Shown piece after piece: positions 1-45,649 of a DNA stretch of 64,000 bases. Below the pieces are notes generated by a model. It made no database searches. It was not told the DNA's origin and saw only the letters and a program-made list of their open reading frames with translations. The DNA comes from Escherichia coli. Lineage in GTDB: Bacteria > Pseudomonadota > Gammaproteobacteria > Enterobacterales > Enterobacteriaceae. The translations under genes were made by a program, and so were the position numbers. The DNA lies in assembly GCF_024298765.1 (NCBI RefSeq), contig NZ_CP101210.1. One strand, 5' to 3'. Each line of letters opens with the position of its first letter. Position 1 is the first letter of the stretch.

Positions 1-233
1 AGCAGCGGTTGAAATTAAACCTGTCCGGAAGGCTGGCGATAAAGATTATTGCAGAGCCACCGGATAAGCGCCGTCGTGACCTGGACAATATCCTGAAAGC
101 ACCACTGGATGCGCTGACGCATGCCGGACTACTCATAGACGACGAGCAGTTTGATGAAATCAATATTGTGCGCGGTCAGCTCGTTCCTGGTGGGCGGCTG
201 GGGATAAAAATCACAGAACTGGAGTGCGCATGA
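1..233 (+). CDS. rusA: RusA-family Holliday junction resolvase, C-terminal part (5' end outside window)
   Basis: Translation contains RRRDLDN..L..LDALT motif characteristic of RusA; position upstream of Q-like gene. Confidence 0.75.
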   Translation, partial: QRLKLNLSGRLAIKIIAEPPDKRRRDLDNILKAPLDALTHAGLLIDDEQFDEINIVRGQLVPGGRLGIKITELECA

Positions 234-919
234 ATAACCAGTATTTACAGTTTGTGCGTGAGCAGCTCATTATCGCCACCGCTGATTTGAGTGGGGCAAC
301 AAAAGGTCAGCTTGAAGCCTGGCAGGAGAATGCCATGTTCGATACAGGGCGTTACAGGCGAAAAAAAATCCGGTACCGCGATGAAGTGACTGGAAAAATG
401 ATAACGCGGGATAATCCACCAATCCCGGGAAAACAATCACTGGCGAATGGCTCATCAATTGCCCTGGTCAGCCCGGTTGAGTTTTCGACATCATCATGGC
501 GGCGGGCTTTGCTGTCTCTTGAAGAGCATCATAAAGCCTGGTTGTTGTGGTGTTACGGCGAGAGTATTTGTTGGGAATATCAGATCGCGATAACACAGTG
601 GGCGTGGAATGAATTTAATACTCAATCCGGTACCAGAAAAATTGCAGGGAAAACGCAGGAACGCCTGAAAAAATTAATCTGGCTGGCGGCGCAGGCAGTA
701 AAAGCAGAACTTTTTGGTGGGGAAGGTTATGAATACCAGGAGCTGGCATTACTGGCGGGAGTGACAACTAAAAACTGGTCCAAAACATTTACTCGTCACT
801 GGGTTGCAATGAAACACATTTTTCAACGACTGGATAGTGAGGCTTTATTGTTTGTAATGAGAACACGTTCAAAACAAAAGGCGGCATTTTCAAAGCAAAG
901 TGTTGCAAAAGTAGATTGA
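224..919 (+). CDS. Putative late-gene antiterminator (Q-like), 231 aa
   Basis: Positional: immediately downstream of rusA and upstream of a promoter plus short-transcript terminator; sequence family not recognised, no Cys4 zinc finger seen. Confidence 0.4.
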   Translation: MRMNNQYLQFVREQLIIATADLSGATKGQLEAWQENAMFDTGRYRRKKIRYRDEVTGKMITRDNPPIPGKQSLANGSSIALVSPVEFSTSSWRRALLSLEEHHKAWLLWCYGESICWEYQIAITQWAWNEFNTQSGTRKIAGKTQERLKKLIWLAAQAVKAELFGGEGYEYQELALLAGVTTKNWSKTFTRHWVAMKHIFQRLDSEALLFVMRTRSKQKAAFSKQSVAKVD

Positions 920-931
920 AAGGCATATATT
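903..931 (+). promoter_or_regulatory. Candidate sigma70 late promoter (pR-prime-like): -35 TTGCAA, 17-bp spacer, -10 TATATT
   Basis: Hexamers read directly; located at 3' end of Q-like ORF, about 55-80 nt upstream of a terminator. Confidence 0.4.
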
Positions 932-983
932 TCATGCAAATCTGATATTTTGCCGATTTTGTACGTGATGGCAAAAGCAAACA

Positions 984-1010
984 AAACCCGCCCACAAGCG
1001 GGTTTTTTTG
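984..1010 (+). terminator. Rho-independent terminator (tR-prime-like)
   Basis: Stem AAACCCGC / GCGGGTTT with 6-nt loop followed by T7 run. Confidence 0.6.
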
Positions 1011-1091
1011 TGCCACTTATCTCGGATAGACATGGTGAATGCGCTGGTGGAGGAGCTAAGGGTGATTTTTAACCAGGTGATTTTTGAATGC

Positions 1092-1120
1092 TTGCAACAT
1101 TGATTTCGTAACGTTATTAT
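1092..1120 (+). promoter_or_regulatory. Candidate sigma70 promoter for tRNA array: -35 TTGCAA, 17-bp spacer, -10 TATTAT
   Basis: Near-consensus hexamers ending 10 nt upstream of first tRNA 5' end. Confidence 0.45.
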
Positions 1121-1129
1121 CCTGCGCCC

Positions 1130-1205
1130 GGCCCTTTAGCTCAGTGGTGAGAGCGAGCGACTCATAATCGCCAGGTCGCTGGTTCAAATCCAGCAAGGGC
1201 CACCA
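1130..1205 (+). tRNA. tRNA with anticodon CAU (ileX/ileZ-like; Ile2-lysidine or Met)
   Basis: 76 nt, cloverleaf with CTCATAA anticodon loop, GGTTCAAATCC T-arm, CCA end; close to E. coli ileX from memory. Confidence 0.8.
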
Positions 1206-1206
1206 A

Positions 1207-1283
1207 CCGTCACCAGTTCATCAGGAAAGAGCGTCAACCCTTTAAGTTGAGTGTGCGAGGTTCGAGTCCCCGGTGGCGGTCCA
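1207..1283 (+). tRNA. tRNA-like gene, non-canonical (anticodon loop CCTTTAA, possibly UUU/Lys; C33 instead of U33)
   Basis: Acceptor stem with one G-U, T-arm GTTCGAGTCC with one A-C mismatch, CCA end; may be a degenerate or pseudo tRNA. Confidence 0.4.
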
Positions 1284-1731: not shown

Positions 1732-1947
1732 ATGAAATCCATGGACAAAATTTCAACGGGCATTGCCTATGGCACCTCCGCAGGCAGTGCTGGCTACTGG
1801 TTTTTACAGTGGCTTGATCAGGTCAGTCCGTCACAGTGGGCTGCGATTGGTGTACTGGGGAGTCTGGTTCTGGGCTTCCTGACTTATCTGACAAATCTGT
1901 ACTTCAAAATCAGAGAAGACAAGCGTAAGGCTGCACGGGGAGAGTAA
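1732..1947 (+). CDS. Phage 21-type pinholin S21 (71 aa, dual-start motif MKSM)
   Basis: Translation matches S21 pinholin as recalled; strong RBS GGAGGTGAGG; first gene of lysis cassette. Confidence 0.9.
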
Positions 1948-1951
1948 TTCA

Positions 1952-2302
1952 ATGACTCAAAACTATGAACTGATTGTGAAAGGGATCCGCAATTTTGAGA
2001 ATAAAGTTACGGTAACTTTAGCGTTACGGGACAAAAAACGCTTTGACGGTGAAATTTTTGACCTGGACATCTCGCTGGACCGTGTTGAAGGTGCCGCGCT
2101 GGGGTTTTATGAGGCAGCAGCCAGAAGGAGCATCAGACAGGTCTTCCTGGATGTTGCTGCCGGGTTATGTGAAGGGGATGAGCAGTCGCCGGAAAAGCGC
2201 CCCGTAATTTTAGAGGCGCAGAATGTGTGGATAACCTACAAAGGAAAGCTACCAGGAAGAATTACTGGTTCTCTGAAGACTCCTCCGGAATCACAACCTT
2301 AA
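1952..2302 (+). CDS. Hypothetical protein (116 aa) inserted between holin and endolysin
   Basis: ATG with RBS GGGGAGAG 8 nt upstream; no family recognised. Confidence 0.55.
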   Translation: MTQNYELIVKGIRNFENKVTVTLALRDKKRFDGEIFDLDISLDRVEGAALGFYEAAARRSIRQVFLDVAAGLCEGDEQSPEKRPVILEAQNVWITYKGKLPGRITGSLKTPPESQP

Positions 2303-2365
2303 GTCACTGACCGGAACAGATAAACCTGTCCGTGGGCAGAAACCGATAAATCCTGATAAATATCC

Positions 2366-2899
2366 ATGAACGCAAAAATCAGATACGGCCTGTCGGCTGC
2401 CGTTCTGGCACTGATTGCCGTCGGTGCGCCCGCGCCTGATATTCTCGACCAGTTTCTGGATGAAAAAGAAGGTAACCACACAACGGCATACCGCGATGGT
2501 TCCGGCATCTGGACCATCTGTCGGGGTGCCACGATGGTGGATGGAAAACCCGTTTTTCCCGGTATGAAACTGTCGAAGGAAAAATGCGACCAGGTCAACG
2601 CCATTGAGCGTGATAAGGCGCTGGCATGGGTGGAGCGCAATATTAAAGTACCACTGACCGAACCACAAAAAGCGGGTATCGCGTCATTTTGTCCCTATAA
2701 CATTGGCCCCGGTAAGTGTTTTCCATCGACGTTTTATAAGCGGCTGAATGCTGGTGATCGTAAGGGCGCATGCGAGGCGATTCGCTGGTGGATAAAAGAT
2801 GGTGGGCGCGATTGCCGCATACGTTCAAATAACTGCTATGGACAGGTTATTCGTCGTGACCAAGAAAGCGCATTAGCCTGTTGGGGAATAGATCAGTGA
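2366..2899 (+). CDS. SAR endolysin (T4-lysozyme-like muramidase with N-terminal signal-anchor-release domain)
   Basis: N-terminal hydrophobic Gly/Ala-rich segment [16 protein letters not shown]; catalytic E-x8-D-x5-T motif [16 protein letters not shown]. Confidence 0.9.
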
Positions 2900-3363
2900 G
2901 CAGAGTCGCCGCGATTATTTATGCTCTGGTTATCTGCATCATCGTCTGCCTGTCGTGGGCGGTCAATCATTACCGTGATAACGCCATCACCTACAAAGAA
3001 CAGCGTGATAAAAAAGTCAGTGAGCTGAAGCAGCTGACCGCCACCATCGCTGACATGCAGCAGCGTCAGCGTGATGTTGCTGCGCTCGATGCAAAGTACT
3101 CGAGAGAATTAGCCAATGCGAAAGCTGAAAATGAAACTCTGCGCGCTGATGTTGCCGCTGGTCGTAAGCGCCTGCGGGTCAATGCCAGTTGCTCCGCAGC
3201 CGTGCGTGAAGCCACCGGACCCACCAGCGTGGATAATGCAACCAGCCCCAGACTGGCAGACACCGCTGAACGGGATTATTTCACCCTCAGAGAACGGTTG
3301 ATGACGATGCAGAAGCAACTGGAAGGGGCACAGCTATACATTCGTGAGCAATGTCTCAGATAA
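2896..3363 (+). CDS. Spanin, inner-membrane subunit Rz (GTG start assumed)
   Basis: Strong similarity to lambda Rz as recalled; N-terminal TM helix then coiled coil. Confidence 0.85.
3116..3301 (+). CDS. Spanin, outer-membrane lipoprotein subunit Rz1 (embedded in Rz, +1 frame)
   Basis: Lipobox LVVSAC, proline-rich body, similar to lambda Rz1. Confidence 0.85.
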
Positions 3364-3518
3364 AAACCGGCCAAGGATAATCCGCTAAAGATTCGCCGGT
3401 GGCGAAAGAGAGCCAAGGTGTCAACCTACGCTATTACTTATGATAATGCAACAGACGAAGCGGGACATATTGGCGCATAACAAATCAGTGCAGGCTAACT
3501 GCAGGAAGAACTTAGGGC

Positions 3519-3785
3519 GTGAACGTAGAAAACCTAAGTAACGCACATTACATCTATAACGAGATGAAAGAGCTACAGCGACAGAAAGGTATACTGGAAA
3601 GTGGTGCAGGGCTTGGTGTGACAATCCAGTCTGCCTATCAATATAGTGCTTTTCTTGAGGCCATACGCCCGCATGCAGTTGCTGAACTTAACAGCCGTAT
3701 TGAGGAAAAGAAATCCGCGCTGGTTAATTTGGGTGCTTCCTTCTCTATATACGAGCATAATAAGGCGGGTTGGAAACCCGCCTAA
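3519..3785 (+). CDS. Hypothetical protein (88 aa from GTG; 73 aa from internal ATG)
   Basis: ORF only; weak RBS; convergent with downstream minus-strand gene. Confidence 0.35.
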   Translation: MNVENLSNAHYIYNEMKELQRQKGILESGAGLGVTIQSAYQYSAFLEAIRPHAVAELNSRIEEKKSALVNLGASFSIYEHNKAGWKPA

Positions 3786-26814: not shown

Positions 26815-27395
26815 TGGCATTCAGAATGAGTGAACAACCACGGACCATAAAAATTTATAATCTGCTGGTCGGAACTAATGAATTTATTGGTGAAGGTGAC
26901 GCATATATTCCGCCTCATACAGGTCTGCCAGCAAACAGTACCGATATTGCACCACCAGATATTCCTGCTGGCTTTGTGGCTGTTTTCAACAGTGATGAGG
27001 CATCGTGGCATCTCGTTGAAGACCATCGGGGTAAAACGGTTTATGACGTGGCTTCCGGCGACGCGTTATTTATTTCTGAACTCGGTCCGTTACCGGAAAA
27101 TGTTACCTGGTTGTCGCCGGGAGGGGAATATCAGAAGTGGAACGGCACAGCCTGGGTGAAAGATGCAGAAGCAGAAAAACTGTTCCGGATCCGGGAGGCG
27201 GAAGAAACAAAAAACAGCCTGATGCAGGTAGCCAGTGAGCATATTGCGCCGCTTCAGGATGCTGCAGATCTGGAAATTGCAACGGAGGAAGAAACCTCGT
27301 TGCTGGAAGCCTGGAAAAAGTATCGGGTGTTGCTGAACCGTGTTGATACATCAACTGCACCGGATATTGAATGGCCAGTAGCACCTATAGGGTAA
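26814..27395 (+). CDS. tfa: Tail fibre assembly protein Tfa
   Basis: Positional immediately after stf; size 193 aa. Confidence 0.85.
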
Positions 27396-37135: not shown

Positions 37136-37235
37136 ATAAAAAAGCCGGCATCATGCCGGCCCAAAAAATATAAACAAGACGATAAAAGGCTAATAACGGA
37201 GGCATCATGACACAGAAAAATAAAAAGGTATAATT
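37136..37235 (-). ncRNA. Candidate small RNA in yedS-yedR intergenic region (possibly RseX)
   Basis: Minus-strand hairpin GCCGGCATGATGCCGGC followed by TTTTT; CCUCC anti-SD-like stretch upstream; RseX location recalled, sequence not verified. Confidence 0.3.
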
Positions 37236-45562: not shown

Positions 45563-45649
45563 AACACATCAGATTTCCTGGTGTAACGAATTTTTTAAGT
45601 GCTTCTTGCTTAAGCAAGTTTCATCCCGACCCCCTCAGGGTCGGGATTT
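45563..45649 (+). ncRNA. dsrA: DsrA small regulatory RNA
   Basis: Sequence AACACATCAGATTTCCTGGTGTAACG...CCCGACCCCCTCAGGGTCGGGATTT matches DsrA as recalled, including terminator. Confidence 0.9.

Follow-up and report, generated by a model that had tools for sequence, protein, structure and literature searches.

Positions 230-1009 of the window, by which we mean the whole 64,000-nucleotide stretch of Escherichia coli DNA that was analysed, very probably make up a late-gene switch of the phage 82 type, belonging to a lambdoid prophage. The original prediction had described a Q-type late regulator together with a short-transcript unit resembling pR' and tR', and both the match of the protein to the Pfam family PF06323 and the features of the phage 82 late promoter agree with that description. 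The module is an ordinary prophage late-gene switch that has been annotated before, a new kind of regulator is ruled out, and none of the evidence we gathered contradicts the reading as a Q82-type switch. Since the protein, the family and the mode of action are all established and RefSeq already names the identical protein correctly, the discovery value is small; the module would govern how a prophage type common in E. coli lyses its host and produces virions.

The regulator gene closes the nin region, as is typical of the family, after rusA and ahead of the holin, lysozyme and Rz genes (1732-3363). The gene and its upstream neighbours are as follows.

9-233, + strand: 3' part of rusA (Holliday-junction resolvase), truncated by the start of the window (PF05866, E 1e-7; PGAP).
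221-224, + strand: Shine-Dalgarno sequence GGAG, 5 nt 5' of ATG 230 (read from the sequence).
230-919, + strand: Q gene, encoding a Q82-family late-gene antiterminator of 229 aa (Pfam, PHROGs, identity to phage 82 Q, PGAP, AF2).

A 231-aa ORF after rusA and before the late promoter had been proposed, and it was recovered on the + strand at 224-919 (231 aa counted from GTG 224; stop codon 917-919), with RusA (PF05866) encoded upstream. The proposed start at GTG 224 did not hold up: ATG 230, giving 229 aa, is the most likely start codon, because phage 82 Q aligns with the protein residue 1 to residue 1 and PGAP calls the gene at 230-919. This ATG shares bases with the TGA stop codon of rusA (ATGA, 230-233). 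At the identical locus in the PGAP annotation, rusA is carried as a full-length gene. Phages 82, 434 and Gifsy-1 have a ylcG/orf45 gene between rusA and Q, which the window lacks.

The protein is a member of the Q82 family. It matched PF06323 (Phage_antiter_Q) with an E-value of 2.3e-91 (305.9 bits, with a cut-off of 25, over positions 1-217 of the 220 in the profile), and at E <= 1 the Pfam scan returned no other family, the lambda-Q (PF03589) and Q21 (PF06530) families included; with Q82 (PF06323), these two make up the three described Q families (Yin et al., 2022; PMC9388147). In PHROGs it matched phrog_304, 'anti-termination protein Q-like' (E 1e-107). Pairwise BLASTP aligned it with phage 82 Q over 229 residues, 176 of them identical, with 0 gaps (E 8e-132), and tblastn against phage records gave 76.9% identity to the phage 82 Q gene (X92588) across 100% of the query, 73.8% to the curated 'Q82-like' protein of phage 434 and 66% to the Q of Gifsy-1 (AntQ), an antiterminator whose activity has been established by experiment (PMC4825925). 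A word-indexed protein search yielded 2,727 relatives. An identical protein, WP_001064896.1, is present in many E. coli genomes under the NCBI name 'bacteriophage antitermination protein Q'.

The original prediction could not place the protein in any Q family and suggested that it might be an antiterminator of a novel or divergent kind, outside the three known families. What speaks for such a type is that the protein has two cysteines only and no zinc finger, that no NCBIfam model matched it, and that a sequence search of the PDB found no relative (the best E-value, 0.04, is noise). The PDB result says nothing about novelty, as it mirrors the lack of a solved structure for the Q82 family, and the zinc finger is normally missing in that family. 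With PF06323 matched end to end and about 77% identity to the Q protein of phage 82, the founding member, the idea of a novel type is refuted and we give it practically no chance; the protein is assigned to Q82.

The cysteine count itself was correct, yet it is the usual condition of the family. Exactly two cysteines are present, C107 and C114, and no Cys4 zinc finger can be formed from them; in the pairwise alignment phage 82 Q has S and V at these places and no cysteine anywhere. A zinc finger is found as an insertion peculiar to lambda Q (PMC9371919), and its absence is the normal state of the Q82 family. An AlphaFold model of 82 Q has been published (Wen et al., 2022; PMC9371919). For the window protein, AF2 was run with an alignment of 64 sequences drawn from 50%-identity cluster representatives (166 representatives at E <= 0.001) and gave a model with a pLDDT of 87.1 and a pTM of 0.75, mainly helical from residue 82 on and less ordered in the N-terminal 80 residues. 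The best two fold matches in the PDB are antiterminators, Q-lambda and AlpA, which Foldseek ranked first and second (7ubn_Q and 7xya_G; probabilities 0.98 and 0.92) with weak E-values of 0.15-0.2; the likeness in fold to lambda Q is a distant one. A C-terminal helix-turn-helix is predicted at about residues 169-195, and this segment is nearly identical between the window Q and 82 Q.

We then examined the DNA around the 3' end of the Q gene, where a promoter TTGCAA-17-TATATT had been proposed at 903-931. Its coordinates were confirmed, and its conservation among relatives lends it support. Ten Q82-type phages were aligned and their mean identity to the window was scored by segment; the elements, with these identities where they apply, are listed here.

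903-908, + strand: -35 hexamer of pR', TTGCAA, within the last Q codons (93% mean identity, 9 other Q82-type phages).
909-925, + strand: 17-bp spacer, the probable site of the Q-binding element (65% conserved, in part through coding constraint).
926-931, + strand: -10 hexamer of pR', TATATT (83% mean identity across relatives).
938-940, + strand: putative transcription start AAA, with A938 as +1, 7 nt past the -10 hexamer (82 pR' likewise starts at AAA).
+1 to +8, AAATCTGA: first transcribed bases (88% mean identity).
943-951, + strand: sigma70-dependent pause element, TG at 943-944 (+6/+7) and TATTTT at 946-951 (+9 to +14), matching the description of 82 pR' (pause hexamer, 69% mean identity).
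952-954, + strand: GCC at +15 to +17, a discriminator-like or elemental-pause segment (same bases in 82 pR'; PMC5001585).
962-963, + strand: predicted promoter-proximal pause site, with U at +25, and +26 (T at 962; position taken from 82 pR').
955-983: transcribed spacer (32% mean identity).
983-1009, + strand: tR' intrinsic terminator, with a CCCGC/GCGGG stem, a 6-nt loop and T7 (sequence and fold; 45% mean identity, with a hairpin and U-tract still found in most members).
938-1009, + strand: predicted short terminated RNA of about 72 nt, 6S-like and IsrJ/IsrK-like (fold; sub-threshold Rfam matches).

By itself the promoter match is at chance level, as a scan of 2.4 kb found 7 sites matching at 9 of 12 positions where 2.8 were expected; it is made credible by the conservation and by the match to 82 pR'. 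The latter promoter has been described as having an AAA start, a -10-like pause element nearer to consensus than that of lambda and including an extended -10 (Bird et al., 2016; PMC5001585), GCC at +15-17, and a pause at +25/+26 with a terminal U (PMC5001585). When A938 is taken as +1, every described feature sits at the described position in the window, a comparison made with text descriptions (PMC5001585), as the phage 82 record X92588 ends at the Q stop codon. Within that record, the last 20 bases of the Q gene, ATATTGCAAAACTGGATTAA, contain TTGCAA too, spaced from the stop codon exactly as in the window, and between the -35 hexamer and the stop codon (903-919) 3 of 17 bases differ from phage 82.

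The contrast between these segments and the spacer, at 32%, argues that the cis elements are under selection and move with the Q82-type gene. The motif TGATAT is kept in 8 of the 10 phages. A blastn search with 860-1030 gave similarity to phages of Klebsiella, Enterobacter and Salmonella that runs beyond the Q stop codon to about 948-954, just after the pause element.

Q-binding elements are reported to lie between the -35 and -10 hexamers, and that of 82 within -31 to +30 (PMC4914094). With 23% of the residues and 3 of those 17 bases differing from phage 82, a DNA specificity of the window protein identical to that of phage 82 Q is an assumption. An antisense promoter of the CII type was also sought in the window (as in paQ of phage 434, TTGYN6TTGY), and none with a convincing -10 was found. 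The - strand carries TTGCAACACTTTGC, a site of this pattern, at 895-908; with 5.8 occurrences expected in the window and 4 found, the site is not claimed.

The terminator had been placed at 984-1010, ending an RNA of about 70 nt, which is close to what we find (983-1009 and a predicted 72 nt or so). Its stem pairs 987-991 with 998-1002 and can be extended by pairing A983-986 with U1003-1006, and the T7 tract occupies 1003-1009, so that the hairpin is symmetric (A-tract, stem, T-tract). A consensus scanner gave the hairpin on the - strand only; its greedy stem had absorbed part of the T-tract. The RNA from 938-1010 folds at -22 kcal/mol, whereas shuffled sequences fold at -13.5 ± 2.8 (z = -3.1). 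At the equivalent position a hairpin with a U-tract is present in 434, phiES15, Gifsy-1 and others, and in phage 434 it is an annotated terminator. The analogy to lambda 6S RNA that the original prediction had drawn for the short transcript, and with it the pR'/tR'-like nature of the unit, was judged right. Sub-threshold Rfam matches at 911-1012 to the Phe, Trp and Leu leaders and to OrzO-P were discarded, as they reflect a generic hairpin and U-tract only.

Beyond the terminator lie the genes that a late transcript would reach.

1130-1439, + strand: tRNA cluster 3' of tR', at the start of the putative Q-controlled late transcript (ARAGORN, 4; Rfam, 3; PGAP, 2 tRNAs).
1732-3363, + strand: late lysis cassette, the first lysis genes that Q-modified polymerase would reach (ORFs; PGAP names).
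1732-1947, + strand: holin.
1952-2302, + strand: YdfR-family protein.
2366-2899, + strand: lysozyme.
Ending at 3363, + strand: Rz-like lysis protein.

A second promoter-like sequence, TTGCAA-17-TATTAT at 1092-1120, stands directly ahead of the tRNA cluster with the same 9/12 score. Late transcription could in principle start there, in which case 903-1010 would do no more than terminate the early operon containing Q; the transcript that carries Q could as well end at the 983-1009 hairpin. This site, however, has neither a pause element nor a terminator after it, and it lies in a tRNA-associated segment (1065-1283, 89% identity) that is common to Stx phages with unrelated Q genes, whereas the 903-954 block accompanies Q82-type genes across genera, together with each described feature of 82 pR'. 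We consider a late start at 1092-1120 extremely unlikely, and retain 903-931 as pR'.

By analogy to phage 82, we infer promoter activity, pausing, Q loading and read-through at 903-1009, in the following order. Host sigma70 RNA polymerase would initiate constitutively at pR' (-35 at 903-908, -10 at 926-931, +1 at A938), and the sigma70 kept by the polymerase would rebind, through its region 2, the pause element with its extended -10-like sequence (+6 to +14, 943-951). The complex would scrunch and then pause at about +25 (T962). Without Q, the polymerase would stop at tR' (983-1009) and free the RNA of about 72 nt. Q would come from the early rightward operon, and the 229-aa protein would act as a Q82-family antiterminator. 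It would bind a DNA element in the promoter region through its C-terminal helix-turn-helix, touch the paused complex at the beta flap (flap tip) with the assistance of NusA, and remain on the polymerase thereafter; the help of NusA would apply when the nascent RNA is short. Polymerase modified in this way would pass tR' and later terminators and reach the tRNAs, the lysis cassette and the morphogenetic genes.

An identical DNA segment is widespread. Many E. coli chromosomes carry a 1,700-bp segment with 100% identity, and 287 of 5,426 complete genomes cover at least 80% of it. In vB_EcoM-606R7, vB_EcoS-689R5 and the PPompW phages, the last being prophages of Shiga-toxin strains, this segment is 96-98% identical and the module 97-99%, and the gene is annotated there as 'phage late gene regulator Q'. 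As cryptic prophages are frequent in E. coli, the gene and promoter might be inert relics of a defective prophage, with a short unit that has no regulatory role; the window opens inside rusA, with the immunity and replication regions beyond it. Against such decay, the Q ORF is unbroken and of full length and aligns colinearly with 82 Q (no gaps or frameshifts), the cis elements are all intact and are followed by an intact lysis cassette, and the near-identical modules just named belong to deposited phage genomes. A relic is thus very unlikely, and we keep the reading as a late-gene switch.

The short RNA has counterparts among described small RNAs. In the window, Rfam models for isrJ (RF01393) and isrK (RF01394) matched 935-1008 below threshold, at 24.5 bits (threshold 37) and 22.7 bits (threshold 50). 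In the Klebsiella and Enterobacter phages CobraSix, KO-TP1 and ST11-VIM1phi8.2, isrJ is found immediately 3' of Q and scores about 63 bits in each, above threshold, and in Gifsy-1 isrK begins 33 nt past the Q stop codon (79 bits, also above threshold). The isrK gene has been described directly downstream of antQ, with its terminator read through into orf45-anrP (Hershko-Shalev et al., 2016; PMC4825925), and IsrK has been grouped with lambda 6S RNA and StxS as antitermination-regulated products of late promoters (Sy et al., 2020; PMC7547250); short RNAs from phages 21, phi80, 82 and P22 are also cited there (PMC7547250). From its sequence, the window RNA appears as a positional and 5'-leader counterpart of IsrJ and IsrK, and it is not a member of either Rfam family.

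The Gifsy-1 isrJ gene scores 100 bits with the Rfam model. Upstream of it stands ATTGCAAAACTGGATTAA, the same 18 bases with which the Q gene of phage 82 ends; the isrJ promoter is TTGCAA-17-TATATT, and the isrJ RNA starts with TGTAAATCTGATATC, the same leader as at 935-949 of the window. The window RNA and IsrJ thus have the promoter and the first 15 nt or so in common and differ in the body of the RNA. Given this promoter, the 17-bp spacing and the matching 5' start, IsrJ may be the terminated leader of an 82-type pR' that was split from the Gifsy-1 Q gene by insertion of a c4-antisense/antirepressor module. This tie of Q82-type pR' leaders to IsrJ and IsrK at the sequence level is the sole mildly new and modestly useful point of the analysis.

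An addition compatible with the switch is that the RNA of about 72 nt also acts as a regulatory sRNA in lysogens, in cis or in trans. Lambdoid pR' promoters are constitutive and give abundant short RNAs in lysogens, of which StxS and IsrK are functional (PMC7547250, PMC4825925); isrJ and isrK occur above threshold at the equivalent position in relatives and match weakly in the window; and the RNA forms two hairpins and a U-tail (z -3.1). The opposing points are that the window RNA falls under both Rfam thresholds, that it resembles IsrJ only in the 5' 15 nt, where the DNA-level pause element lies, and in having a generic terminator, and that its middle part, conserved at 32%, speaks against a conserved seed. 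We regard a regulatory role in lysogens as unlikely. The wider proposal, that the RNA is a working Hfq-bound sRNA in lysogens and that IsrJ and IsrK are in general leaders of Q82-type late promoters, is in our view similarly doubtful; if true, Q82-type leaders would form a widespread, fast-diversifying class of sRNAs in Enterobacteriaceae prophages. The Q82-type late-gene switch is the reading with which we compare known systems below.

The closest known system is that of phage 82, whose Q protein (82Q, REGQ_BP82, X92588) has 229 aa as in the window and is 77% identical without gaps. TTGCAA and the stop codon are equally far apart in both, and the AAA start, the extended -10-like element, GCC and the U at +25 are alike by description; Q follows rus in both, and a terminator yields a short RNA, as predicted for the window. 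The two differ by 53 substitutions in Q, C107 and C114 of the window among them, by the ylcG/orf45 gene that phage 82 has between rus and Q and the window lacks, and by the downstream cargo, which unlike that of phage 82 is a tRNA cluster. 82 Q exerts antitermination and antipausing on RNA polymerase, stimulated by NusA (PMC4914094), and the window Q would be expected to do the same. As a natural variant with 77% identity and a near-identical promoter, it is at most a convenient comparison allele for work on Q82.

Gifsy-1 AntQ is likewise a Q82-family protein, 66% identical to the window Q, and there read-through of the isrK terminator gives a longer mRNA. In Gifsy-1 a c4-antisense/antirepressor module separates Q from the isrJ leader copy, whereas the unit in the window is single and uninterrupted. 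The RNA body and the terminator sequence differ from those of IsrJ and IsrK in Gifsy-1, and for this reason the Rfam scores of the window RNA are sub-threshold.

Phage lambda has the same logic and gene position, with a constitutive late promoter, a sigma70 pause, a Q-binding element, a terminator and a short RNA. Lambda Q, however, belongs to another family (PF03589), has no detectable sequence similarity to the window Q and carries a zinc finger; the lambda pause is at +16/17, compared with +25 for the 82 type (PMC5001585), and the terminated RNA, with termination at +193 (PMC4914094), is much longer than 72 nt. AlpA of Pseudomonas aeruginosa and Q21 represent different families, again with no sequence similarity to the window Q. 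Q21, lambda Q and AlpA form a closed nozzle (PMC9388147), a mechanism that may or may not extend to the proteins of Q82. Among the three Q families this one alone has no solved structure (PMC9388147), and it is the family to which the late regulator of the window belongs.

We found that the Salmonella sRNA gene isrJ, in Gifsy-1, is associated with sequence elements of the Q82-type late promoter:

1907-2013 of the Gifsy-1 locus (NC_010392.1 31500-35200), minus strand: isrJ, Rfam match at 100 bits

Upstream of this gene lies ATTGCAAAACTGGATTAA, the same 18 bases with which the phage 82 Q gene ends; TATATT comes next, and the 5' start of the IsrJ RNA is the 82-type pause element (TGTAAATCTGATATC). 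Because of these shared elements, IsrJ looks, on sequence grounds, to be a Q82-type late promoter's terminated leader, the counterpart of the isrJ promoter/leader region in the window being 895-1009. In Gifsy-1, insertion of a c4-antisense/antirepressor module bearing isrK appears to have separated this leader from Q.

Another sRNA family, STnc100 (Rfam RF02076), occurs in the late leader region of several Q82-type phages, farther from Q on its downstream side:

633-828 of L006, a Q82-type phage locus: STnc100
1452-1638 of L010, likewise: STnc100
633-827 of L005, likewise: STnc100
3373-3577 of the phage 434 locus: STnc100, score below threshold

The match lies ~100-260 nt past the tR'-equivalent terminator in the Klebsiella phages among these and ~1.1 kb past it in phage 434; the window holds no STnc100 match.

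On the minus strand, TTGCAACACTTTGC (window 895-908) matches the CII-binding consensus TTGCN6TTGC and shares bases with the pR' -35 hexamer, and the phage 434 record annotates the antisense promoter paQ at the equivalent place. The consensus pattern shows no enrichment over chance in the window (4 occurrences versus 5.8 expected), and no clear -10 was found after this minus-strand match.

In phages 82, 434 and Gifsy-1 a small gene, ylcG/orf45, separates Q from the upstream rus (or ninG):

1496-1636 of the phage 82 locus: ylcG/orf45
1364-1486 of the phage 434 locus: ylcG/orf45
364-504 of the Gifsy-1 locus L008: ylcG/orf45

In the window (224-233), unlike these phages, rusA adjoins Q directly through an ATGA stop/start overlap.

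Three Rfam matches, all above threshold, bear on the extent of the prophage:

27157-27355: IS009
37137-37226, minus strand: RseX
45563-45649: DsrA

These matches place the right-hand part of the window in the E. coli chromosome, in the neighbourhood of dsrA/rseX, with the prophage ending at some point short of about 37 kb.

Downstream of tR', the tRNA count at 1130-1439 differs between annotators:

1130-1439, ARAGORN: four tRNAs (Met-CAT, Lys, Thr, Gly)
1130-1439, Rfam: three tRNAs, 1207-1283 not picked up
1130-1439, PGAP: two tRNAs only
1092-1120: promoter-like site TTGCAA-17-TATTAT, its 3' edge 10 bp upstream of the first tRNA

This candidate promoter could provide Q-independent expression of the prophage tRNAs in lysogens. 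The CAT-anticodon gene is tRNA-Ile according to PGAP versus Met according to ARAGORN; the former call corresponds to the lysidine type, as in ileZ of Stx phages, and the ileZ-argN region of Stx2 phages shares 89% identity with window 1065-1283.
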